DNA from: a virus
Taxonomy: Duplodnaviria; Heunggongvirae; Uroviricota; Caudoviricetes
Reading direction: 5' to 3' (one strand)
Length of the DNA stretch: 31,872 nt
IMG/VR virus record: IMGVR_UViG_3300045988_180666
The position numbers were made by a program, and so were the translations under genes. Numbering within the stretch: position 1 is the first letter of the stretch; every line of letters begins with the position of its first letter. The notes under the pieces were generated by a model. It saw nothing but the letters and a program-made list of their open reading frames with translations. It was not told the origin of the DNA and ran no database searches. Positions 15,341 through 31,188 of the stretch are shown piece after piece.

Positions 15341-16024
15341 TTATAGCTTTCCTTTGTCGTGGTAGCTGTAGAAGCCATCCTCAGCCAAGATGATATGGTC
15401 CATCAAGAAAAGTCTCATCACCTCGCACGCCTTGGCTATCTTCTGCGTGAGCATATCGTCCGCCTTGCTCGGCTGCGTGCTGTTCGATGGGTGGTTGTGT
15501 GCCACGGCGATGATGGTTGCATTGTTGAGCACGGCTTCTTTCATTATCAGTCGAACGTCCACCGCTGTCTCGGTGATGCCTCCCTCGCTGAGCTTGGTGC
15601 ACTTTATCAGCCTAAAGTTTTGGTTCATCAGCACTACCCAAAAGCCCTCTGTCTCATTGCAGCCTATCATTGGGCGAAGATAGTTGTAGAGTGCCAGGCT
15701 GCTGCCTAGGTCGGTGTTTCTCGCTACCTTTTCCATTTGGTAGCGTCTGCCTAGCTCGATGGCTGCCTGTAGGGCTATCGCCTTGCAGTCTCCAATTCCT
15801 GGTACCACTTCCAGGTCTTCTATTCTCGCCTTGCCGATGTTGCGAAGCGAGTTGCCCATGATGTTATAAATCTGTCGTGCCTGCTCTTGGCTGTCCTTGG
15901 TACCTGCCCCTCTGTTGATTACCAAAGAAATCAAGTCAACGTTGGTAAGGGTGTCGAAACCTTGGTTATAGGCTCTGTACTGCGGTCTCTCCTCCATACA
16001 AAGATTGTTATAATTTTGTCTCAT
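15341..16024 (-). CDS. radC: RadC-like JAB/MPN-domain protein (UPF0758 family)
   Basis: N-terminal helix-hairpin-helix (LEVVPGIGDCKAIALQAAIELG). C-terminal JAB motif VAHNHPSNSTQPSKADDMLTQKI (HNHPSG..PS..D signature). Confidence 0.7.
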   Translation of the reverse strand: MRQNYNNLCMEERPQYRAYNQGFDTLTNVDLISLVINRGAGTKDSQEQARQIYNIMGNSLRNIGKARIEDLEVVPGIGDCKAIALQAAIELGRRYQMEKVARNTDLGSSLALYNYLRPMIGCNETEGFWVVLMNQNFRLIKCTKLSEGGITETAVDVRLIMKEAVLNNATIIAVAHNHPSNSTQPSKADDMLTQKIAKACEVMRLFLMDHIILAEDGFYSYHDKGKL

Positions 16025-16039
16025 ATCTTTTGTTATTTG

Positions 16040-16564
16040 TTAGTTATACATTCTCTTTGTTCTCGCTAGGAACATCGCTCCCATCACTTGTGCGCCACAT
16101 TCGGCTAGCTCGTTGGCGAACTCTCGGGCGGTCGCTCCGCTCGTCACCACGTCGTCGAAGATGATGACTTTCTTTCCGCTGAAGTACTCTCTATCGAGTG
16201 CCACTCTGTAGTCGAAGCTCTCACACACTCTGTCTGTGCTGAAGTGCTTGGCTGTGCGCTCTCCATAGATGGAAATGTGCTCGTTTCCGTTCTGTACCTT
16301 TGCGCCTTGGCTCACCTTTTGGGCGAAGCGAGAAAAGCGCTTGGTGTACTTCTTTGAGTTGGCTGCTGGAGCGCAAACCATCACGAAGTCGCTGGCTTTG
16401 TCGCCATAGGTGTTGACGAAAGAGCTGACCACCATATCGGCAGCTGCGTCTGTCGCCCACTGCTTTCCATCCTTGAAGGCAAAGATGAAGTTTCTCACTT
16501 GCTCTGCTTGTGCTGAGCGGTCGAAACGCTTGGAGCTGTACTCGTAATAATTGAAAGTTTTCAT
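16040..16564 (-). CDS. ComF/GntX-like type I phosphoribosyltransferase-domain protein (174 aa, no zinc finger)
   Basis: PRPP-binding motif VIIFDDVVTSGATA near the C-terminus. The FVMVCAPAANSKK...RFSRFAQ arrangement resembles the ComFC core. There is a 15-nt gap to radC. Confidence 0.6.
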   Translation of the reverse strand: MKTFNYYEYSSKRFDRSAQAEQVRNFIFAFKDGKQWATDAAADMVVSSFVNTYGDKASDFVMVCAPAANSKKYTKRFSRFAQKVSQGAKVQNGNEHISIYGERTAKHFSTDRVCESFDYRVALDREYFSGKKVIIFDDVVTSGATAREFANELAECGAQVMGAMFLARTKRMYN

Positions 16565-17462: not shown

Positions 17463-19064
17463 CTATAGCATGGAACCCGTGGCGATGTAGCCATCAGCCT
17501 GAGGGTATTTCTCCATGCCAATCATGAGCGTGTCGTAGGCATCGGAGCCATCGGTGCGAGCCTCCAACTTATCCTCCTCGGTCTCAGCCAGCTTCTCGCC
17601 TCGCTTATCCTTCTTGCCGTTGTAGACCCCGGCCAGGCGGATGGAGATGAGCAGGTCTTCGTTGTTCTCGCTGTTGATCATCGAGCGATGCTCAGCCTTG
17701 CCGAGGAACATGCGGTTGAGCAGAAGCATCTTTTCGAGATGTCCCATCGGGTTGCCCAGATAGACCTCGTTGACATACCAGCCATGGTCGGTGAGGTAGT
17801 CGGTGATGAAGGTATGGAAGTCATCGTTCATCAGGGCGTAGTTGTTGCCCACGAAGGTGGAGTCGTAGTAGAAGTTGACCTCTTTGCACCGATGGTACTC
17901 ATAGTACTGCATGAACTTGTCGAGCAGGGCTGGCAGCTTCTCCTCATACTTCACGAAGATGCTCTTGAGGCAGCGTGCCTCGCCCCGCAGGTTGTCTTGT
18001 CCGACGGCTATCCAGTTGATGAGGGCGTTGGCATCGAAGGCGATGCAGAGCGGACGGTCGGGGTCAACGTCGGCATCCATTCTGGAATCTACATGCTTGA
18101 GCTTGTCGATGTCGTAGCCCAAGCCATCGAGGTAGGCGAGGTTGGGCGCCGTGTATAGGTTGGCATCCCTGAGGTTGGAGTAGAAGCCATCGAGCGAGAT
18201 GGAAGGTCGCTTGCACATGATGGAGGTCTGGAAGGTGAGGGCAGGGAGGTCTCGCTTCATCTGCTTGATGAACTCCATGCCGAGCACCTCGATGTTATAG
18301 ACCGATGAGTACTCTTTATAGAAGAGTGCCTTGGAGCGCAGTTGCGCCAGGAGCTGACCAATCTCTCGGAGTCGGCGCTGGGCATAGCCTGAGACATGGC
18401 CCGAGGTCTTGATGCGGTTGCGTATGTCATACTCCTCTACCACGAGCGAGGCGATGGCGTCGATGAGCAGCTGGTCGCAGTCTTTCTTGTAGTTGAGGAA
18501 CCAGGAGCCCTTCTTGGTCACGGGCATATCAGAGGTGATGAGCATGCCATGGTGGTAGTAGTGCTGGCCGAAGAGGTTGACGTTGCCTCGATTGGCAGGG
18601 AAGGTCTCGTCTTTGAGCTGTTCGAAGTTGATGAACTTCGCCTCGTCGATGTCGAGGTAGTCGAGCGAGAGGGAGTTGGAGGTACCCTTGCGGTCTTGCG
18701 AGATGATGGTACCGATGGAGCCGTTATAGAAAGAGATGGTGTTCTCCCAGTTGCTGGGCGGTATGACCGGGTCGGGCCATCCCAGTTTTTTGGGAGGCTT
18801 GACCCCGATGAGATAATGCTTGCCCCGGTGGAAGCCCCATCGCTCCCAGTGCTGAAGCATCGACGGTATGGTGTTGGTGAGGCATCGCTTGGTGTTGGCG
18901 GATACGAAGCCGCCGTTGCTGCCAGGCATGCGCTGCATGTTGCGCAGGTTGAAGGTGGCGTGGAGAATGCTCTTGCCGATGCCTCGACCGCCCACGACCA
19001 CGTTGTCGCGGGCGGAGATGAGGTTGACCTCCATCTGGGCTGGGTTGAGATATTGATCTATCAT
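17463..19064 (-). CDS. terL: Terminase large subunit
   Basis: Walker A GGRGIGKS near the N-terminus and Walker B LDYLDIDEAKF. Size is 533 aa. The start overlaps the upstream gene by 4 nt. Confidence 0.8.
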   Translation of the reverse strand: MIDQYLNPAQMEVNLISARDNVVVGGRGIGKSILHATFNLRNMQRMPGSNGGFVSANTKRCLTNTIPSMLQHWERWGFHRGKHYLIGVKPPKKLGWPDPVIPPSNWENTISFYNGSIGTIISQDRKGTSNSLSLDYLDIDEAKFINFEQLKDETFPANRGNVNLFGQHYYHHGMLITSDMPVTKKGSWFLNYKKDCDQLLIDAIASLVVEEYDIRNRIKTSGHVSGYAQRRLREIGQLLAQLRSKALFYKEYSSVYNIEVLGMEFIKQMKRDLPALTFQTSIMCKRPSISLDGFYSNLRDANLYTAPNLAYLDGLGYDIDKLKHVDSRMDADVDPDRPLCIAFDANALINWIAVGQDNLRGEARCLKSIFVKYEEKLPALLDKFMQYYEYHRCKEVNFYYDSTFVGNNYALMNDDFHTFITDYLTDHGWYVNEVYLGNPMGHLEKMLLLNRMFLGKAEHRSMINSENNEDLLISIRLAGVYNGKKDKRGEKLAETEEDKLEARTDGSDAYDTLMIGMEKYPQADGYIATGSML

Positions 19065-19690
19065 AGTGCTTTGTCCTCCTTGACTTCTTCTGTAGGTGTA
19101 TATTCCAAGAGCTGTTCGTCGTAGTCCTCGGCCTCGATCTTGACGAGATCCATGGAGTTGTCGGTGTATTTCTTGACGAGCTTCTTGATGGTCTGCATCA
19201 CGTTAGGGATGCGCTTGAGACCCAAGTGTCGTGGGTCGGTGGTAGGGATGAAGACCTGAGGCTGAATCTGGTCGTAGCCGTTGTCGGTAGGATCCTCTTT
19301 GTCGAGCAGGTGATATTTGCCGTATGCAGCTGCGGCGGCAGCCATGGCTCGGGCATCGCCCATGGAGTCGGCCTTGTCGTAGGTGCGCTGTATCATCTGG
19401 TCGAAGCGATAGCGGGCGAAGTCTTTTGACACTTTTTGCAGGTTGCCCAATATGAGCTTGATGAGGTGCAGGTCGTTGTAAGCCATCATGCGCTGCACCT
19501 TGTAGTCGTGCATATCTTTATAGACCAGCTCTTGGTCGCTCTTGCGAGGGTTGATGAGCCACCAGGCATAGAGGGCACGGATGCGCAAAATGCGGTCGCG
19601 CACTGGGGCGGGCACATTTTGCGCATCCATCTCTTCGGGTGTGCGGTCCATCAGTTCGATGATGGCATCGATGTTGGCGGGTTCTCTCAT
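19061..19690 (-). CDS. Putative terminase small subunit / packaging-associated protein
   Basis: 209 aa. Translationally coupled to terL and lies immediately upstream of it. No diagnostic motif was found, so the call rests on position only. Confidence 0.35.
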   Translation of the reverse strand: MREPANIDAIIELMDRTPEEMDAQNVPAPVRDRILRIRALYAWWLINPRKSDQELVYKDMHDYKVQRMMAYNDLHLIKLILGNLQKVSKDFARYRFDQMIQRTYDKADSMGDARAMAAAAAAYGKYHLLDKEDPTDNGYDQIQPQVFIPTTDPRHLGLKRIPNVMQTIKKLVKKYTDNSMDLVKIEAEDYDEQLLEYTPTEEVKEDKAL

Positions 19691-19968
19691 ATTCTAATCT
19701 CCTCTAACATTTGGTTCAGATATTCGTGTGTGCGCTGCACCGCCTGTGGCGAGCCAGCCGCAGCCAGGTCTAGCTTGTTTTTGCGTATCTGCTGGCGCAC
19801 CGTCGCCATGCCCAAGTAATAGACACGGTGAAGCTCGGAGTCGGGCTTCAGTATCTCGTCACGCAGATCGTCCTCGCTAATATCCAAAAGGACGGACATC
19901 TCGGATATCGGAGTCAACGTCTCCGCGAAGTCTTGCACTTTTTTGAGTAATTCCTGAGAAATTTCCAT
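19687..19968 (-). CDS. Small HTH-like protein (TerS N-terminal-like DNA-binding domain?)
   Basis: 93 aa. The ISEMSVLLDISEDDLRDEIL segment resembles a helix-turn-helix. The N-terminal region overlaps the previous gene by 92 nt. Confidence 0.35.
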   Translation of the reverse strand: MEISQELLKKVQDFAETLTPISEMSVLLDISEDDLRDEILKPDSELHRVYYLGMATVRQQIRKNKLDLAAAGSPQAVQRTHEYLNQMLEEIRI

Positions 19969-20452
19969 TGATTCTTAAGCTTTGAGTGTCACAATGAAGG
20001 GTATATCCGCCGAAGAGGTCGGCGAAGACCTGCGGGTCGGTGGTGATGATGGTTGACTCGTCACGGCTGCCGTAGGTCTGGTTTTGCGAGGTGACGACCG
20101 ACACGACGTGCTGGTCGTTGCGGAAGAGTGTCACCTTGGAGTGGTTTTGCCCCAGGAACACATCGTTGAAGCAGGTCTGCATCATGCGCCACAGCTGCAC
20201 GGTCTTTTTGCTCGCCTTGACATCGAGCAGCATCGTTGCCGACAGGATGCTGCCCGACTGGCGCATCAGGCGGAAGCCTCGCAGGAACTCCTCGGAGGTG
20301 GAGTAGGAAGACACCCACACATCTGCAGGGCCTATCTGGGAGAGAATCCACTTGATGAGACCGAGGGTGTGGAGGTGCCGCCCGAAGTAGGCTTGCGTCT
20401 GGGCATCGGCGATAGGACGGAGCAGGTCACTGACCTTGACCTTGGTCGGCAT
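19877..20452 (-). CDS. Hypothetical protein (191 aa)
   Basis: Open frame in the head-packaging operon. No domain recognised. Confidence 0.4.
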   Translation of the reverse strand: MPTKVKVSDLLRPIADAQTQAYFGRHLHTLGLIKWILSQIGPADVWVSSYSTSEEFLRGFRLMRQSGSILSATMLLDVKASKKTVQLWRMMQTCFNDVFLGQNHSKVTLFRNDQHVVSVVTSQNQTYGSRDESTIITTDPQVFADLFGGYTLHCDTQSLRINGNFSGITQKSARLRGDVDSDIRDVRPFGY

Positions 20453-24612: not shown

Positions 24613-25209
24613 TTAATCTTTGCTAAATCTTGTTGTAGATGTTAAATTTACGCCTCTTTTTGCGTGTTGATCACGCATTCTGTAGAAACATTGGCGTACG
24701 GTATCCTCGTAATCGATGCCAATGCCATGCTGTTCGCACCATGCCGAAATGAGCGATGAAAGCTTGCATGAGCGGTCGGCGATGTCTTTGAGCGAAGCCC
24801 AGAGATCCATCTTGAAGAGGTCGGAAATCATCTCTTTGACGGCACGTCTGGCACGTGGCCCGAGGTAGTTGTACTCTCGCACAGGCTTAGCCTTGGAGTC
24901 AGGCAGCTCGATGGCAAGATACTCTTCGGGATGGGTGAGCCATCGGCTCTGCTCGAACTCCTCGTCGTGGAAGGTATGCTTGACACTTTGGTGCAGTTGG
25001 CTGGCATCAGCCTGCTGCATCTCTTGGATGTTCTCTTGGTCGATAGGCGATAGGTTGACAACGGGAGGTCTGCTGGTGAACTTGCGGAGCACAGCCACCT
25101 CGTTGCCGATGGCAGGGAAGACCACTGGGTTGCCATAAGCTCGGTAAGCCCATTGTCTGATGTGGGTAGGAACTTTGATGTAAACAATTGGATTCATATA
25201 GCTATGCAA
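24613..25209 (-). CDS. Hypothetical protein (about 198 aa; alternative start MNPIVYIK at 25197)
   Basis: First gene downstream of the promoter at 25217-25226. Confidence 0.45.
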   Translation of the reverse strand: MHSYMNPIVYIKVPTHIRQWAYRAYGNPVVFPAIGNEVAVLRKFTSRPPVVNLSPIDQENIQEMQQADASQLHQSVKHTFHDEEFEQSRWLTHPEEYLAIELPDSKAKPVREYNYLGPRARRAVKEMISDLFKMDLWASLKDIADRSCKLSSLISAWCEQHGIGIDYEDTVRQCFYRMRDQHAKRGVNLTSTTRFSKD

Positions 25210-25216
25210 TTTTCGT

Positions 25217-25226
25217 GCAAAGATAC
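25217..25226 (-). promoter_or_regulatory. -7 box TATCTTTGCA for the head/packaging operon
   Basis: Plus strand tgcaaagata; the -33 element is non-canonical. Confidence 0.4.
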
Positions 25227-25299
25227 AAAGAAAATTTGAAATAACTAACGATAATCGGTAAAAACTAACTTTTATCAGTAAATTTGGTGTGATATAATT

Positions 25300-25600
25300 T
25301 CGTCCGAAAAGTTTGTATTTTTGTATCGTACAAACAAGGCTCTGTAACTAGCTGATAATCAATACTATTTTTGTGATACAATTTTCTGATACAGAAATTG
25401 TAACTCTTTAGCTTTTGTAACTTGGGGTTTTGTCGAGGTCGAAGACCTGTAGGAGAAGGGGCTTGTTACAAACTTGAAAAACTTTGTAACAGAGTTGTAA
25501 CGCAACTTTGTAAACATCGGCAAGGCGGCTTAACTCCATCTTTTATAATTATTTACCTCTTTTGCCAACATTATGTTACAGAGTTACAAAGGATTTGTAT
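25300..25600. repeat. Iteron array: about 12 copies of TTGTAAC / GTTACAA and TTGTAT variants. Putative replication origin or regulator-binding array.
   Basis: Copies at 25343, 25398, 25415, 25465 (inverted), 25484, 25495, 25508 (TTGTAAA), 25575 and 25584 (inverted). There is also a TTGTA-TCG-TACAA palindrome at 25321-25333. The array lies just downstream of the primase-helicase gene. Confidence 0.5.
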
Positions 25601-25731
25601 AAAATAAAAGAAAGGGGTGTGGGGAAAACGATGGCACGGGGCGTGAAGGAGGATAGGGAAGGCCCATCGAGACACCCAGGACACCCCCATTGGCCAATGG
25701 AGGGGTAGCGAGACGAAACATCGCCCATGGC

Positions 25732-25770
25732 AACGAAAAAAGGGAGCGACGGCCAATGCGCATCGCTCCC
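25732..25770 (-). terminator. Strong rho-independent terminator for the primase operon
   Basis: Stem GGGAGCGA/TCGCTCCC (8 bp) with a 12-nt loop. On the minus strand it is followed by UUUUUUCGUU. Confidence 0.65.
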
Positions 25771-25951
25771 TCGTAACATGGGAAAAGAATTATAAATCAG
25801 CAAAAATCTGCCTATGAAATCAGCCCTCGTCTGCTTGCAAAAATAGTGAAAAATTGCTTGAAAATTTAGCCGAAAATATTTGCATAATTCAGATATTTTT
25901 TGTACCTTTGCACTATAACTTGGGGCTATCTATTCTATTATATATGGATGG

Positions 25952-28906
25952 CTAGAAAGGTTTATCACTATCTTTATCTACCTTGCTCCAGTCAATGGTA
26001 GATTGATATTCACCCCCAGCTGCAGGGACATCAGCCTTGGCAGCTTGTTTATCCTCTTTTTTATCATCACTCTTCTTGCTTCGGAGATAGATCATCTCGA
26101 CAGGGCTGCCGTCTGGGTTAGCTGGATCGCGTCTGATGATGCGGTGCTGGCTGTTGCAGAGATCAGCTGGGTTCAGCTCTTGGATGTATGGACACAGCTC
26201 GACGAAGGCTCTGAGCTTTTTGGTGAAGCTCTGTGTGGTCGCCTTGTTGATGCCTGAGAACTGCTTGAAGTCATTGAACGCACGCTCTCTCACGATAAAT
26301 GTATCGAGTCGCTCGCTCTCTTCTGAGAAGTAGGATGCAGCCCAGTCTTCGAAGTTGACACCCATGTCGGCCTTGAACTTGCGCTTGATGATGTTATCCA
26401 TCGGTGGCATGATCTTGATAGGTTCGCCAGCCAAGGAGAGATAGAAACGACAGCACTGCAGGAAAAAGTTGATGTCAGCATTCCACTCATCCTCAGTGTA
26501 TGTCTTTGAGAAGAGATCTTCGTCGAAGTCATCACGGATGCTTCGGGTCTCTTGGTAATCATTCTCCTCTGTGCGCTGATGGTAATAGTCGGAGAACACC
26601 ATATAGAGCAGTCTCGCCTCTGAGGAAGGGTCGAAGTCTGCCGGCACGTAGTTGGTGGTGAAGGCAATCTTCGGGCTATCCTCGAAAGGAATTGTGAAGC
26701 TCTGGTTGTTCTTTGGGTTGACTGTCATATCTGAAGTAATGTTATCGTAAAATAAACCTGTGTTGAGATAGCGGTCACAGTCATCGAGGAGCAGCATCTG
26801 GGTGTGCTGTGTCACCTGATCGAAGACGTGTGGGTTGTCCATCAGCTTAGGGTTGCGTCCGGAAAGCTTGACTGTTTTCATCAGCAGTGAAAGCGTCTTG
26901 AAGAAGAAACTCTTACCGGAACGGCCGTTGCACTCGTTGTTTTCACCAATCTTGTTGTCCATCGCCATCGGAGCCCAAGCCCTGGATGGTGCCTTGTAAT
27001 GATGGAGCATGTAGCCGAAGGTGAAAATCTTGTTTATCAAGTTCTGCTTTTGCTCTTGTATCTCGTTGTCGGCAAGCCCTTCGCCAGCGATGTCGAAGAG
27101 GTGTGCCTTGTGGTATGCCTCTTTCTCCTCGATGCTCTTGTCCTCAAAAGCATACTCTAGCTCTTTGCGCCAGTAGGTGCGAGAGGCGTTGATGAGATAG
27201 CCGAAGAAGTGGGACTTCACGTTCTTGACCTCGATGTCGAACTTCGGCCTGCCATCCTCGTCGATGGTTCGGGTGATGGAGAACATGTCATCCAACTTCT
27301 TGAAGTTGTGGTTGATGACATTCTCTTGCCAAACATAGTTTTTGAGCGAGCTGCCCTCACGCTGGTACTCGTTTAGTCCATCTTTGGTGACCTCGACGCT
27401 GACACGAGGGAAGAAGAACAACTGCGAGTGGTTGGTGTAGCTGGTGAAGTCTAGCGTAATCTCTTGGAGCGAGTCGAGCGCCGATGCCGACAGCTTTGGC
27501 GTGTTGAGCACCAAGTTAAGGATGTCACGCTTCTCAGCTCTCTCGATGACCCATTGGCGGCAGAACTCACGGATGTCTCTCGTGGTGATGAGCTTGACGA
27601 TGTTGCCCGTGATGCGAACATATTTGGTGATGGTCGAGTTGTCATCGTGCAAGGTATAGAAACCATTGAGACGAAGAAAATTGTAGAGGCACGCCGTGTC
27701 GATGTAGTGGTCCCAGGTGTTAGCCTTTTTGTTGAGCTTGCTCACCCAAAATCGGGCTGGCATCGCCAGTGTCATGAGGTTGCGGAAGTCTTTGCGAGTA
27801 TTGCGCAGCTCCATCCAGTCTCGCAGGTCTTTGCGCCCCTTGCCACGGTTGTCGTGGTAGGTGCGAAGCCAAGAAGGCAACCATATCGTATGGATGTCGA
27901 TGAAGCGCAGGGCAAGCTCTGTGCCCTTGGCGATGCCCGTCTCGTCGATGTCGGGTATATTGTAGAGCACCTCGACATACTTCATAATCTCTCGGTACTC
28001 CTCGTCGCTGAGCTTGTAGGTCTCGGAGTTGAACCATAACGGGTTGTAGCCCATGGAACGGCAGCAGAGACTGTCACGCTCGCCACTGCAGATGAAAGCC
28101 TCGGGAAGTTTCTTCTCCTTGTAAGGCTTGGACTCGTCTGTGTTGGTCTTGTTGTACTCAGCCTCTTCACGGCGGTTGAACTCGTGATAGGCAGCCTTCA
28201 GCTCAGCTAGGCCATTGATGTATTGCTTAGGCTTGATGCCGTCTGGGGTGTAAGAGAATCGCCACTGCTTTTGGTAGTTGAGAGGCTCATATATCTTGTA
28301 GAACTTAACCTCAGGCTTGTCGCCTTCAGCTGGGCGAACCAAGCACTCACGCATAAAGATAGGGTAGTGCTCGTTGCTGTGCTTAATCTTGACCTTGCGG
28401 TCTTTGACGTATCCTATCCACTTGGCGGAATGCCAGTTGAGCGCATCGACGTGCTCTTGCTTGACGTTTGGACCCAGTACCTTCAGTTCATCTTCGGTGA
28501 ACTTCTCGTTCAGCTCGAAAGGTCTGGTACCATCTTTCTCGTTGATGGTGGCATCACGCTCTGTGAACGTAGGCTTGTTGACCTCTTTTTTGAGTTCATC
28601 GCTAACGTTGTATTCGGAAGCCAGTCGCAGGATAGCATCAGGAAAGCGGTCGATGCACTTCTCTCTCATGTAGAGGTCGATAGGTGACTCGGCAGATCCG
28701 TCGCCGCCGAAGTCTGTCACTCGCCAGCAGTCTTTGAACTTTTTGAGACTGCAGGAAGGTGTTTTCTCATTGCGGATGGCAAAGTGCTTTTTAGGCGTGC
28801 CAGTCGTGCAATATTTCTGGATGCATTCTTTTGCGTCCGGGTATAGTGAGATGATGATGTCGAGACCATCATCTGTAGCTTGATAAATTTGTTCTGCTTT
28901 GATCAT
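25952..28906 (-). CDS. Primase-helicase with a P4/D5-family C-terminal NTPase domain (start ATG 28906)
   Basis: Walker A GRSGKS...LLLDDCD in the C-terminal third. The large N-terminal region is primase-like. The track start at 28936 is a TTG; the ATG at 28906 (MIKAEQIYQ) is preferred. Confidence 0.65.
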   Translation of the reverse strand: MIKAEQIYQATDDGLDIIISLYPDAKECIQKYCTTGTPKKHFAIRNEKTPSCSLKKFKDCWRVTDFGGDGSAESPIDLYMREKCIDRFPDAILRLASEYNVSDELKKEVNKPTFTERDATINEKDGTRPFELNEKFTEDELKVLGPNVKQEHVDALNWHSAKWIGYVKDRKVKIKHSNEHYPIFMRECLVRPAEGDKPEVKFYKIYEPLNYQKQWRFSYTPDGIKPKQYINGLAELKAAYHEFNRREEAEYNKTNTDESKPYKEKKLPEAFICSGERDSLCCRSMGYNPLWFNSETYKLSDEEYREIMKYVEVLYNIPDIDETGIAKGTELALRFIDIHTIWLPSWLRTYHDNRGKGRKDLRDWMELRNTRKDFRNLMTLAMPARFWVSKLNKKANTWDHYIDTACLYNFLRLNGFYTLHDDNSTITKYVRITGNIVKLITTRDIREFCRQWVIERAEKRDILNLVLNTPKLSASALDSLQEITLDFTSYTNHSQLFFFPRVSVEVTKDGLNEYQREGSSLKNYVWQENVINHNFKKLDDMFSITRTIDEDGRPKFDIEVKNVKSHFFGYLINASRTYWRKELEYAFEDKSIEEKEAYHKAHLFDIAGEGLADNEIQEQKQNLINKIFTFGYMLHHYKAPSRAWAPMAMDNKIGENNECNGRSGKSFFFKTLSLLMKTVKLSGRNPKLMDNPHVFDQVTQHTQMLLLDDCDRYLNTGLFYDNITSDMTVNPKNNQSFTIPFEDSPKIAFTTNYVPADFDPSSEARLLYMVFSDYYHQRTEENDYQETRSIRDDFDEDLFSKTYTEDEWNADINFFLQCCRFYLSLAGEPIKIMPPMDNIIKRKFKADMGVNFEDWAASYFSEESERLDTFIVRERAFNDFKQFSGINKATTQSFTKKLRAFVELCPYIQELNPADLCNSQHRIIRRDPANPDGSPVEMIYLRSKKSDDKKEDKQAAKADVPAAGGEYQSTIDWSKVDKDSDKPF

Positions 28907-28933: not shown

Positions 28934-28964
28934 CAAAATTATTGCAAAGCGAGTTCAAAACAAA
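28934..28964 (-). promoter_or_regulatory. Canonical Bacteroides promoter: -33 TTTG (28964-28961), 19-nt spacer, -7 TAATTTTG (28941-28934)
   Basis: Read from the sequence. The spacing matches the TTTG / TAnnTTTG consensus. It lies 27 nt upstream of ATG 28906. Confidence 0.5.
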
Positions 28965-29074: not shown

Positions 29075-29386
29075 TTAATCGGTGGCATCGACTTTTATAT
29101 CAAAAGTGTCGTTGTGTAGCAACATCTTGGTATGAACATAAATTGGCTTTTGCTCATCCTCATCCCATCCAACCTCTCGGAAGTCTCTGCCATCGATATA
29201 GCATTCGGTGGCGTATCCTTTGTCGGTCCACTCTACGATATGGTCTTTGTCGAACTCGTCTCTTGCTGGCACTGTAGCCAGAACACGAGTGCCAAACTTG
29301 CTGTAGCTAATCTCGTGTATGGTTACGTTAGGATATTTCTCGATGATTGCCTCCTCGATAGATTTTGTCTTAGTCTTCTTTTTCAT
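29075..29386 (-). CDS. Hypothetical early protein (103 aa)
   Basis: AT-rich early region. Confidence 0.45.
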   Translation of the reverse strand: MKKKTKTKSIEEAIIEKYPNVTIHEISYSKFGTRVLATVPARDEFDKDHIVEWTDKGYATECYIDGRDFREVGWDEDEQKPIYVHTKMLLHNDTFDIKVDATD

Positions 29387-29576
29387 TGTTCTTCATTCTG
29401 AATTTAACAATACCTGCCACGATGCCGTCTTCTTGGTCATCGTAGAACATATTTAAATCTGTTGTGCCCTTATGGAGTGTACCATAGGACACGTCAACGG
29501 CAACGCTGGCATCCTCGAAATCTTTGAGGATGGCTTGAAGCTGTTTGCTGTTGCATCTGACTGTCATTTTTCCCAT
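29370..29576 (-). CDS. Hypothetical early protein (68 aa)
   Basis: Short ORF coupled to its neighbours. Confidence 0.35.
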   Translation of the reverse strand: MGKMTVRCNSKQLQAILKDFEDASVAVDVSYGTLHKGTTDLNMFYDDQEDGIVAGIVKFRMKNNEKED

Positions 29577-29788
29577 GATCCATCATTGATAATTTGCTCG
29601 ATGACCTCTCTGTCGATGGCACGCCAAGTATTGGTGCGCATCTTATTGTAGATGGTGTTCTGGCTCATCTCTAGCTTTAGCTGCAGTGTGGCCATGAACT
29701 TGCTTCTCTTTTTGCGTGGTATCTCATTATACCATGCGAGGATGATATTTTCATCATCATTTTTTTGTTTTTTTCTTGCATATTCCAA
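29564..29788 (-). CDS. Cro/excisionase-like small DNA-binding protein
   Basis: 74 aa. The segment MATLQLKLEMSQNTIYNKMRTNTW resembles an HTH. It is divergent from the repressor gene. A TAACTTTG -7 box lies 21 nt upstream. Confidence 0.45.
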   Translation of the reverse strand: MEYARKKQKNDDENIILAWYNEIPRKKRSKFMATLQLKLEMSQNTIYNKMRTNTWRAIDREVIEQIINDGSWEK

Positions 29789-29902
29789 TATTTATTATTA
29801 ATTTTGTTGCAAAGTTAGTAATAAAAATCGGAAAATACTAACGAAAGTAAGTAAAAACACCTACGATAATAGGTTAAATATTATTAATTAAATTAGGTAA
29901 TT
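29789..29902. promoter_or_regulatory. Divergent switch region between the Cro-like and repressor genes, with an 11-mer direct repeat TATTATTAATT at each end
   Basis: Copies at 29793-29803 and 29879-29889. TAACTTTG (minus strand) at 29817-29810. Contains motifs shared with the region at 25244-25269. Confidence 0.5.
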
Positions 29903-30280
29903 ATGTTTAATGGTCAGATAATCAGAAAGTTAATGTCGGATGCTGGCTTAACTAAAAAAGAGTTTGAAAGACGTATGTTCGGTAGTAAATCGACCGACCT
30001 CAACCATTTGGAAAAAGCGAAGAATCTTCGCAGTGACACTCTCGAACGTCTGCGTGATGTGTTGAAGTGCTCTATGGATGACTTCTTTACAGCACCCTCA
30101 TGGGCTGAGAACGGAAAGGGGACAGTCGTAGGCTCTAACAATGTGCTGTCAACAGTAGCCATCGGCAACGAAGTGATGGAAGCCCAATATCTCAAGGAGT
30201 TGCTCTTGGAGAAGGACAAACGCATCAGCACTTTGGAAAATTATATCAAGCTTCTGGAGACTAACTTAAATAAGGACTAA
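29903..30280 (+). CDS. XRE-family HTH transcriptional repressor (CI-like)
   Basis: The N-terminus LTKKEFERRMFGSKSTDLNHLEKAKNLRSDTLERLRDVL is HTH_XRE-like. The C-terminus has a coiled coil. It is divergent from the cro-like gene. Confidence 0.6.
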   Translation: MFNGQIIRKLMSDAGLTKKEFERRMFGSKSTDLNHLEKAKNLRSDTLERLRDVLKCSMDDFFTAPSWAENGKGTVVGSNNVLSTVAIGNEVMEAQYLKELLLEKDKRISTLENYIKLLETNLNKD

Positions 30281-30510: not shown

Positions 30511-30566
30511 TTTGCGTATATTGAATAAAAGTGCTACTTTTGCACATTGATAATTTATTGTGCAAC
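30511..30566 (+). promoter_or_regulatory. TetR gene promoter and operator: -33 TTTG, -7 TACTTTTG, 26-bp palindrome
   Basis: -33 TTTG at 30511-30514, a 20-nt spacer, then -7 TACTTTTG at 30535-30542. The palindrome TTGCACA-N12-TGTGCAA (30540-30565) overlaps the predicted transcription start. Confidence 0.55.
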
Positions 30567-30591
30567 CAAATCTCGATGGAGGTACTTCGTT

Positions 30592-31188
30592 ATGTCAATA
30601 TCAAAAACTAGACAGAAATTAGTGGATGTCGCTCGACAACTCTTTGCAAAGAACGGAATCGCCAATACAACGATGAATGACATCGCTGTGGCTTCTGGTA
30701 AGGGACGTCGCACGCTTTATACCTATTTTAGTCGTAAGGAGGACGTCTATTACGCAGTGATAGAGTCGGAATTGGAGCGCCTTTCTGACAAACTTGACGA
30801 AGTGGCCGCCAGTAAGATTCGACCTCAAGACAAAATCATCGAATTGATTTATACCCACTTGAGCATGATCAAGGAGACTGTTGTCAGAAATGGAAATCTG
30901 AGAGCTGAGTTCTTCCGCAATATTTGGATGGTGGAAAAGGCTCGCAAGAATTTCGATGAAGACGAGATAGAACTTCTCAGGAAGGTTTATTCCGAGGGCA
31001 AGGCGGACGGCGAGTTTGACATCGATAATGTAGATTTGGTGGCTGACATCACACACTATTGCATCAAAGGTCTCGAAGTTCCGTTTATCTATGGGCGATT
31101 GGGACATGGCTTGAACGTGGAGTCGAGCAAACCGCTGGTTGCCAAGGTTGTCTATGGTGCTTTAGGAAAGTCGGGAATGAAGTTGTAA
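30592..31188 (+). CDS. TetR/AcrR-family transcriptional regulator
   Basis: The N-terminus RQKLVDVARQLFAKNGIANTTMNDIAVASGKGRRTLYTYF is a classic TetR HTH. ATG at 30592. Confidence 0.75.
   Translation: MSISKTRQKLVDVARQLFAKNGIANTTMNDIAVASGKGRRTLYTYFSRKEDVYYAVIESELERLSDKLDEVAASKIRPQDKIIELIYTHLSMIKETVVRNGNLRAEFFRNIWMVEKARKNFDEDEIELLRKVYSEGKADGEFDIDNVDLVADITHYCIKGLEVPFIYGRLGHGLNVESSKPLVAKVVYGALGKSGMKL

Follow-up and report, generated by a model that had tools for sequence, protein, structure and literature searches.

A conserved array of TACA-core heptamers upstream of the p198 gene of Bacteroidota temperate siphophages as a candidate replication origin

Which protein is served by the dense array of short repeats that separates the primase-helicase gene from the head genes of a temperate phage, and does replication start there? 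The question arises from a viral sequence of 31,872 nucleotides (IMG/VR record IMGVR_UViG_3300045988_180666, Caudoviricetes), called the window below and always meant at its full length. It is a temperate siphophage-like element of Segatella/Prevotella type with nearly all genes on the minus strand, in the order early operon, primase-helicase, a 753-bp gap, p198 and a 139-aa gene (p139), followed by a ClpP-type protease, the capsid gene, an endonuclease-like gene, a 209-aa gene and the large terminase (TerL; Table 1). About twelve copies of TTGTAAC/GTTACAA and variants in this gap, together with a GC-rich block holding a perfect palindrome, an AT-rich stretch and the neighbouring P4/D5-type primase-helicase, had been taken for the classic architecture of a phage or plasmid origin (the original prediction), with a binding platform for a late-gene regulator as the alternative.

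Comparison with relatives indicates that the array is genuine, i.e., a conserved, lineage-specific and putatively protein-binding platform at the early/late junction. A replication origin of the type known from Staphylococcus aureus pathogenicity islands (SaPIs) and P4 is its single most likely reading, and is put forward tentatively.

The repeat array in the window and in its relatives

Ten exact copies of TTGTAAC/GTTACAA are present in the window against 2.3 expected, a number reached by none of 100 dinucleotide-preserving shuffles. Six of them lie within 192 bp (25398-25589), and 15-16 sites with a TACA(A/G) core are found in 25310-25600 when one-off and TTGTAT/GATACA variants are included, which confirms the clustering of repeats in about 300 bp. 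The sites have the form xxTACA(A), GTTACAA being the commonest spelling. Eight of the 14 GTTACA hexamers of the window fall in the gap, one 300-bp bin holds 10 copies of TACAA against a window mean of 0.69, and the array is the strongest 6- or 7-mer cluster of the window and the sole one of its kind there. The sites occur in both orientations and are spaced mostly 9-11 bp apart within clusters, and a central head-to-head pair flanks an A/T-rich spacer. The leading tandem pair (Table 1) creates a -7-box-like TAACTCTG, and equivalent pairs with 8-bp spacing are present in the relatives L046 (TAACTTTG), L052 (TAATTTTG) and Leef_1 (TAATTTTG). When the gap was aligned in 43 distinct versions, with 72-99% identity to that of the window, the half-sites of the 28-bp palindrome in the central cluster proved conserved and its spacer to drift. 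The gap has no match in Rfam at the gathering threshold or at E <= 1, and none was obtained by blastn against GenBank phages. CI operators were considered as the identity of the sites and rejected, as the CI/early region has no such motifs.

Relatives were gathered via primase homologues (54-69% identity), p198 homologues, Bacteroidales genomes of GTDB and further viral contigs. Of the more than 150 distinct loci, 43 of them close and over 100 distant, nearly all have an equivalent array directly upstream of the p198 homologue. It occupies a gap of 400-750 bp and comprises 6-15 copies of a single heptamer; a few relatives, e.g., L215, L213, L054 and L076, have a weak array. The lineage motifs include GTTACA, ATTACA, GATACA, (A/T)TCACAA, TTCTACA, (C)ACTACA, GCTACA, CCTACA, CACACA and, once, TTCAACA. 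The TACA core is mostly kept, the flanking bases vary by lineage, and within one phage all copies shift their spelling together. This concerted spelling, the 9-11 bp spacing and the presence of both orientations point to sites for a co-evolving DNA-binding protein rather than to promoter debris or RNA. Some contigs (L112, L116, L126, L128, L185, L189, L195, L198 and L206) end inside the array gap, probably where assembly breaks at repeats.

It is hardly credible that the repeats arose by chance or from base composition in an AT-rich gap dense in promoters, for example as overlapping -7 boxes (TAnnTTTG) without a dedicated binder. TTTGTAxx does overlap the TTTG of the -7 consensus, several copies form TAnnTTTG strings, and promoter-like elements occur on both strands of the gap, but the enrichment is far above that of the shuffles, the sites are conserved while the spacers drift, and the concerted changes lead to motifs that lack TA or TTTG (TCACAA, TTCAACA).

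Two named phages carry the array. BT-TP2, a cultured temperate Bacteroides phage, has GTTACAA repeats (about 4.95-5.45 kb). In Leef_1, a phage of marine Polaribacter, a gap of 520 bp contains 13 copies of (G)ATTACA(A) besides a terminator, CCCCACACCCCC and a TGTAATTTTGTAATC pair; the array is the only repeat cluster of the complete Leef_1 genome apart from a coding repeat. Neither the array nor the p198 family is described in the BT-TP2 or Leef_1 annotation or in the papers that were consulted; the kind of element (iteron or operator array) is familiar, but the element itself is undescribed.

The genes upstream of the array differ among relatives. A DnaG/DUF927-type primase-helicase, alone or followed by a methylase or a DUF4417 gene, takes this place in some loci, and up to 5 kb of other genes, a gene for a BRCT-domain protein or tape-measure/tail genes in others. 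A sister group of Bacteroides/Phocaeicola prophages (L083/L084, L138-L164, L168-L200) has the same p198/head module and array architecture; its primase-helicase, of 1065-1111 aa, is of the DnaG (Zn-ribbon, DNAG_N, Toprim)/DUF927 type, and the early operon of L083/L084 encodes, where annotated, a GerE/LuxR-type regulator.

The primase-helicase as candidate binder

The primase-helicase has Toprim-like and Walker A (GRSGKS) motifs and matches BT-TP2 gp6 (67% identity) and a Leef_1 protein annotated as 'DNA primase/TOPRIM' (36% identity). A weak whole-length profile match to DnaG/DUF927-type primase-helicases was obtained (hhalign E 1.6e-4, probability 50%), and a PHROGs search of the primase and p198 gave essentially nothing. 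The last 165 residues are predicted to form a winged helix (pLDDT, the per-residue model confidence, >90 across the domain), which in the model resembles the P4 origin-binding domain; the expected C-terminal winged helix of the P4-alpha/SaPI-Rep kind is therefore in place. The motifs, the homologue at 36% identity and the P4-like winged helix agree with the designation P4/D5-type, whereas Pfam, NCBIfam and PDB searches give no sequence match. Among close relatives the winged-helix region is 55-64% identical, against 86-97% for the N-terminal and helicase parts, and the extreme tail less than 45%. The domain is thus the fastest-evolving part of the protein, as would be expected if it determined specificity; the difference may mark a mosaic boundary or a specificity domain that is diversifying. 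Its recognition helix is nearly invariant in the alignments.

SaPI origins comprise 6-12 penta- or hexamer iterons directly downstream of rep, in opposite orientations around an AT-rich centre, and Rep/PriRep has a C-terminal winged helix (PMC9371898). Like the SaPIs and related phage-inducible chromosomal islands, the phages studied here have short repeats (5-7 bp) in 6-12 or more copies and in both orientations around AT-rich DNA, situated between the gene of a helicase with a terminal winged helix and the next (packaging/late) module, and related elements differ in the spelling of the repeat. Unlike in these islands, the phage array stays with the downstream p198 when the upstream genes are swapped, can be kilobases away from the primase, and forms several clusters without a single central AT-rich block; the host phylum and the helicase family are also different. 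P4 has octamer repeats, direct and inverted, near its alpha gene. The primase-helicase resembles P4 alpha (origin-binding domain PDB 1KA8) in combining primase, SF3-type helicase and C-terminal winged helix in one polypeptide, and differs in having no sequence similarity to alpha; the repeat is unrelated, and it forms one cluster in contrast to the separated ori and crr of P4.

As a SaPI/P4-type origin, the array would operate as follows. The winged helices at the C-terminus of the hexameric primase-helicase would dock on the repeats, which are spaced by one helical turn and point both ways around short AT-rich spacers. Opposed sets of repeats would then have the DNA between them melted, and the helicase would load itself. 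The region of action would be bounded upstream by the terminator of the early operon and downstream by the p198 promoter. As this promoter and the early promoter have an immunity-type operator in common, the origin would be silent in the lysogen. The GC-rich palindrome would play no part. The enrichment, conservation, spelling and phasing of the repeats, the terminator, the winged-helix fold and the operator sharing are the observations from which we infer the identity of the binder and a start of replication at this site.

In those of the retrieved sequences that include a primase-helicase gene, the array is on the downstream side of this gene. The motif class also corresponds to the type of primase: xTTACA, GATACA and TCACA occur with the type of the window and mostly xCTACA with the DnaG type, the exceptions among the latter being TCAACA in L211 and CACACA in L222. 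The motif class is a clade trait that is equally congruent with the p198 tree and with the primase type (identity matrices, neighbour-joining tree).

Several observations weigh against an origin bound by the primase. The only invariant neighbour of the array is p198. In Leef_1, gp39, the p198 counterpart, heads the protease/capsid block, and it and the array lie 5.6 kb and 11 genes downstream of the primase, right after the integrase gene; in the clade of L181, L186, L201-L208 and L217 the array follows tape-measure/tail genes with no primase in view, and inserted genes break the adjacency also in L194, L197, L219 and L220. The proximity of array and primase-helicase, on which the original prediction relied, accordingly holds for the window and for most loci and is no property of the family. 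The inserted genes are all upstream of the terminator and are thus early-operon extensions, which weakens the linkage argument against an origin. The same architecture and TACA core are found in phages with a very different primase-helicase, and the C-terminal domains of the two primase types share no profile similarity by hhalign. Short A/T spacers and opposed orientations are present, but instead of a single conserved AT-rich core there are several clusters. No covariation test told the primase winged helix from p198 as the binder. Two further negatives are uninformative here: GC skew has no inflection, all genes being on one strand, and no DnaA box (TTATCCACA) occurs at <=1 mismatch in 25198-25951.

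The pattern of divergence is the remaining objection. The divergence of the gap and of p198 parallels that of the head proteins and not that of the primase. In the own clade of the window, the gap is 73-80% identical, like p198, and the helicase and the C-domain are up to 95-99% identical. Compared with the L016 clade, the helicase of the window is 99% and its C-domain 95% identical, and the intergenic region is 80% and p198 77% identical. Since the gap diverges like p198 next to a nearly identical helicase and C-domain, a recombination boundary is placed at the 3' end of the primase gene, with the array in the right-hand module.

p198 and the competing readings of the array

Proteins of the p198 family are 141-200 aa long, have 382 cluster representatives in a library of 1.84 billion proteins, and lack any Pfam domain; Pfam, NCBIfam and PDB sequence searches with p198 were essentially empty. 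Its AlphaFold2 model (pLDDT 87) has two parts: at the N-terminus a small alpha/beta fold that resembles a winged helix and in which the loop [IL]P[DE]SKAKP is invariant, and at the C-terminus three helices. Fold searches gave weak generic matches, the best neighbours being DNA-binding winged-helix and three-helix domains, and Leef_1 gp39 is the only credible structural match (Foldseek probability 0.99). DNA binding by p198 is plausible from the model. The protein falls in no recognised activator family, with only weak three-helix or sigma region 4-like fold matches, and has neither the RepE-like two-winged-helix (Rep/O-type) fold nor Rep/O family membership.

The p198 promoter has a consensus Bacteroidetes -7 box. 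Of 20 lineages examined, 19 have such a box 13-48 bp ahead of the p198 start, Leef_1 (L165) having none within 300 bp. Upstream of the promoter is an operator-like 17-mer, whose sole other copy in the window (29826-29842, minus strand; 0 expected) lies beside the early promoter and the CI-like gene. Matching operator pairs, each specific to its phage, are present in L017, L025, L037, L071 and L059. These pairs suggest, from sequence, an immunity-type operator common to the p198 and early promoters. As the promoter-side 17-mer recurs only beside the early promoter and is paired in five relatives, p198 looks directly immunity-controlled, which is unusual for a purely late gene.

It is quite possible that the array is the control region of the unit led by p198 (p198, p139, protease, capsid and onward). 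The protein would bind the repeats upstream of its own housekeeping-type promoter, build a multi-copy nucleoprotein complex there and switch or tune the head genes at the early/late junction, array and p198 being a co-inherited cis/trans pair. This is consistent with the position of the array upstream of p198 in nearly all loci whatever lies upstream, with a promoter-proximal cluster roughly 65-95 bp from the consensus -7 box (by our own reading of the sequences of relatives), with the identity of p198 following that of p139, protease and capsid but not that of the primase, and with the DNA-binding folds nearest to the p198 model. BT-TP2 gp8, encoded in the same position, is deposited as 'transcriptional regulator', and the slot of p198 is that of the late activators RinA, ArpU and Alt in Gram-positive siphophages. 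The number of sites is a difficulty, as 10-15 sites over 300-400 bp exceed those of known phage late activators and are typical of origins, centromeres and pac sites. The p198 promoter does not look activator-dependent, having a near-consensus -7 box and an immunity-type operator, and the motif, absent from the rest of the genome, cannot serve to coordinate a set of late promoters. In addition, different motifs accompany p198 proteins of 43-48% identity (window compared with the L138 and L085 clades), yet those below 23% identity (BT-TP2 gp8, Leef_1 gp39) have the same or a similar one. The late-gene regulator platform named as the alternative in the original prediction is nearly as well supported as the origin.

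RinA, ArpU and Alt/LtrC act on one or few sites downstream of their own genes. What p198 has in common with them is a small putative DNA-binding protein encoded between the replication module and the morphogenesis genes; unlike theirs, its sites number 10-15 and are upstream of the gene, its promoter is constitutive-looking and operator-controlled, and it is no member of these families. In type II/Ib centromeres, such as R1 parC with its binder ParR, at least 10 short phased repeats flank the promoter of the operon of the binder and double as its operator. The array is similar in having many short, helically phased repeats by the promoter of the gene of a putative binder, and differs in that no ParM or ParA-type NTPase gene is adjacent to p198, head genes follow, and BT-TP2 and its relatives are reported to be chromosomally integrated.

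A reading of p198 as a replication initiator, with the array as its iteron origin in a plasmid-like module that recruits whatever primase-helicase is present, is improbable. Iteron plasmids have a Rep, iterons and an operator at the rep promoter. As in these plasmids, iterons and gene always lie side by side, separated by a promoter that carries an operator; the p198 promoter is co-regulated with the early promoter, the initiator would explain the common architecture despite two primase types, and the lineage-specific spelling resembles incompatibility groups. However, p198 co-evolves with head and not with replication proteins, there are no DnaA boxes in the gap, and 141-200 aa is small for a two-winged-helix Rep, a fold not seen in p198. 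The repeats are also of 7-8 bp compared with 17-22 bp in iteron plasmids, and the operator is not a half-iteron but the immunity-type site shared with the early promoter.

A packaging site (cosB- or pac-like) with p198 as a small terminase-like recognition subunit is very unlikely. In favour of such a site, the head/packaging block begins with the array, a unique cis element made up of many sites. In its size and in having a winged-helix-like domain at the N-terminus, p198 matches small terminases, a comparison drawn from lambda Nu1 and P1 pac, and several metagenomic contigs end in the gap. Yet repeat arrays are expected to break assemblies, TerL is 5.5 kb downstream behind the endonuclease-like and 209-aa genes in the usual HNH-TerS-TerL order, and the operator at the p198 promoter is of early type. 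For Leef_1, cos 3' ends have been predicted (PMC8776804), and its record apparently does not start at the array.

The origin and the control region would be reconciled if p198 and the primase winged helix both acted on the same repeats, coupling origin firing to the head-gene switch in a single nucleoprotein complex, which is rather doubtful. It is no less doubtful that array and p198 would then make up a hitherto undescribed portable cis/trans module of Bacteroidota temperate siphophages, from gut Segatella/Bacteroides/Phocaeicola to marine Polaribacter, and a re-setting of lineage specificity by two bases of the heptamer is likewise considered unlikely.

Other elements of the gap, the phage and its significance

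Table 1. Coordinates of the array, of other elements of the gap and of selected genes of the window
Feature	Position	Strand	Remarks
Gap between primase-helicase and p198	25198-25951		753 bp
Leading tandem pair, TTGTAAC-TC-TGTAACA (TTGTAACTCTGTAACA)	25574-25589	-	8-bp spacing; invariant in relatives
Central site cluster	25464-25516		contains 28-bp palindrome TGTTACAAACTT-GAAA-AACTTTGTAACA at 25464-25491
Site cluster, two GATACA and two TTGTAAC	25372-25422		
Promoter-proximal cluster, two TTGTAT, GTACAAA and CTGTAAC	25310-25348		88-120 bp upstream of p198 -7 box
Primase-helicase ORF (open reading frame)	25952-28906	-	984 aa from ATG; TTG at 28936 would give 994 aa
C-terminal winged-helix domain	26078-26401	-	candidate origin-binding domain; predicted fold
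p198	24613-25197	-	uncharacterised, 194 aa; directly downstream of array
p198 promoter -7 box, TATCTTTG(CA)	25218-25225	-	full TATCTTTGCA; Bacteroidetes consensus
Operator-like 17-mer, GTTAGTTTTTACCGATT / GTTAGTWTTTWCCGATT	25253-25269	-	upstream of p198 promoter
Non-repeat block, CTTTTCGGACGAAATTATATCACACCAA	25284-25311	-	near-invariant in 43 relatives; recognisable in L052 and BT-TP2
C-box, CCCCACACCCC	25614-25624	-	end of pyrimidine tract; (nearly) invariant in 43 relatives
Pyrimidine-rich tract (C>G, U>A)	25607-25735	-	behind terminator; from composition; variable
14-bp palindrome, CCATTGGCCAATGG	25687-25700		in 38-nt insertion (~25676-25714)
Intrinsic terminator of early/replication operon, GGGAGCGAUG...CGUCGCUCCC then U6	25736-25770	-	RNA fold
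Clade-specific insertion of ~45 nt	25797-25841		alignment columns 115-160; within AT-rich stretch
Antisense promoter-like element, TTTG-N20-TACCTTTG	25879-25910	+	Bacteroidetes type; points into primase 3' end
TerL	17463-19064	-	large terminase
209-aa helical protein gene	19061-19690	-	
Endonuclease-like gene (phrog_16945)	19877-20452	-	
CI-like helix-turn-helix repressor (phrog_3)	29903-30280	+	divergent from small early operon

The array is preceded by a hairpin that has the stable GC-rich stem, the U-run and the structure-compatible changes of an intrinsic (Rho-independent) terminator. Its folding energy is -24.9 kcal/mol (z = -4.4), the stem is conserved, and a C-to-U change in the 5' arm is G-U compatible on the minus strand only. 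Equivalent terminators precede the array in BT-TP2, Leef_1 and L083/L085/L138. The GC-rich block behind it is the least conserved segment of the gap, still C-rich in most relatives, and reads better as a pyrimidine-rich tract for which a role in Rho loading may be suggested. A small ORF and a structured RNA were rejected as identities of this block, which has non-triplet indels and no conservation. The C-box at the end of the tract has counterparts in Leef_1 (CCCCACACCCCC, about 29110-29121, L165) and in L056 (CCCCGACACCCC); it is common to the gut phage and to that of marine Polaribacter, although their primases are only 36% identical and their p198 proteins are recognisably homologous only at the level of fold.

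The palindrome is present as originally described, and GGCCAATG is repeated at 25751-25758 inside the loop of the terminator hairpin, the sequence of which is not conserved. The 38-nt insertion that holds the palindrome is found in only five of the 43 versions (the window and L002-L005), and in L004 and L005 the palindrome is broken by a 1-nt deletion, so no meaning can be attached to it; a GC clamp as part of an origin is likewise discarded, the GC-rich block being the most variable segment. The AT-rich stretch is real in composition (GC 0.27-0.32 at 25800-25950), but the role in unwinding assigned to it finds no support in the alignment, about 45 nt being an insertion and the rest a conserved antisense promoter-like block. 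Palindrome, GC clamp and DNA unwinding element thus lack comparative support, as they fall wholly or partly in clade-specific insertions or in the most variable segment, and palindrome and GC-rich element belong, as judged from the alignment, to no conserved mechanism. Three of the four pillars of a 'classic' origin, namely palindrome/GC clamp, AT-rich unwinding region and primase adjacency, are therefore undermined, and the origin claim retains the conserved iteron-like array and the winged helix.

The antisense promoter-like element, which is near-consensus, at least 90% conserved over the 43 relatives and present also in the L052 clade, is contained in a conserved block (25865-25918) directly behind the primase stop codon. 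The block and the p198 promoter region form a 54-nt inverted repeat with 70% complementarity, and both promoters have, by our own reading, a matching CCGA-N29-TAnnTTTG spacing. The antisense promoter could give rise to an RNA antisense to the primase, or could drive transcription outward under joint control. A model in which divergent promoters flank every array was dismissed, this promoter being confined to the clades of the window and of L052. The insertion of ~45 nt contributes an extra sense-strand -7-like box, TATTTTTG, at 25838-25845.

Bacteroidetes-type promoters (TAnnTTTG) are present in the intergenic regions of the window, which has no tRNAs. Small early genes (29370-29788, minus strand) and the divergent CI-like gene form a lysogeny switch, and a TetR-family gene further right (30547-31188, plus strand) may be cargo or flanking host DNA. 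The cluster of endonuclease-like, 209-aa and TerL genes resembles the HNH-TerS-TerL arrangement of cos phages, in which case the 186-bp gap at 19691-19876 would be the candidate cos region. Further genes follow the terminase, among them one for a probable portal and one for a large tail-fibre-like protein of unknown function (phrog_22546). Two proteins, one RadC-like with a JAB domain (PF04002, E 1e-35) and one with a phosphoribosyltransferase domain, are encoded between the terminase and the rest of the morphogenesis genes (15341-16564, minus strand). Their genes and those of lower GC at 13.8-15.1 kb have the appearance of an accessory (moron) island.

Close relatives are numerous in IMG/VR, and one is carried by a metagenome-assembled genome of Segatella copri. 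BT-TP2 and its relatives have been reported as chromosomally integrated prophages, and relatives of BT-TP2 were found also inside large Bacteroidales chromosomal contigs. Many strains with BT-TP2-like sequences have been reported (PMC12694917).

These phages are abundant prophages of the dominant Bacteroidales of the human gut, and their origin, late switch and packaging signal have so far not been defined. A recognisable cis-element with an invariant orphan partner would be a handle on their mode of replication or on the timing of their late genes, and it also marks module boundaries in prophage annotation. The lineage-specific arrays are natural orthogonal protein-DNA pairs for Bacteroides genetics, e.g., for shuttle-vector origins or orthogonal operators. 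With the cultured, inducible BT-TP1/BT-TP2 in B. thetaiotaomicron, which have the same GTTACAA array, the question of what the array does is directly testable.

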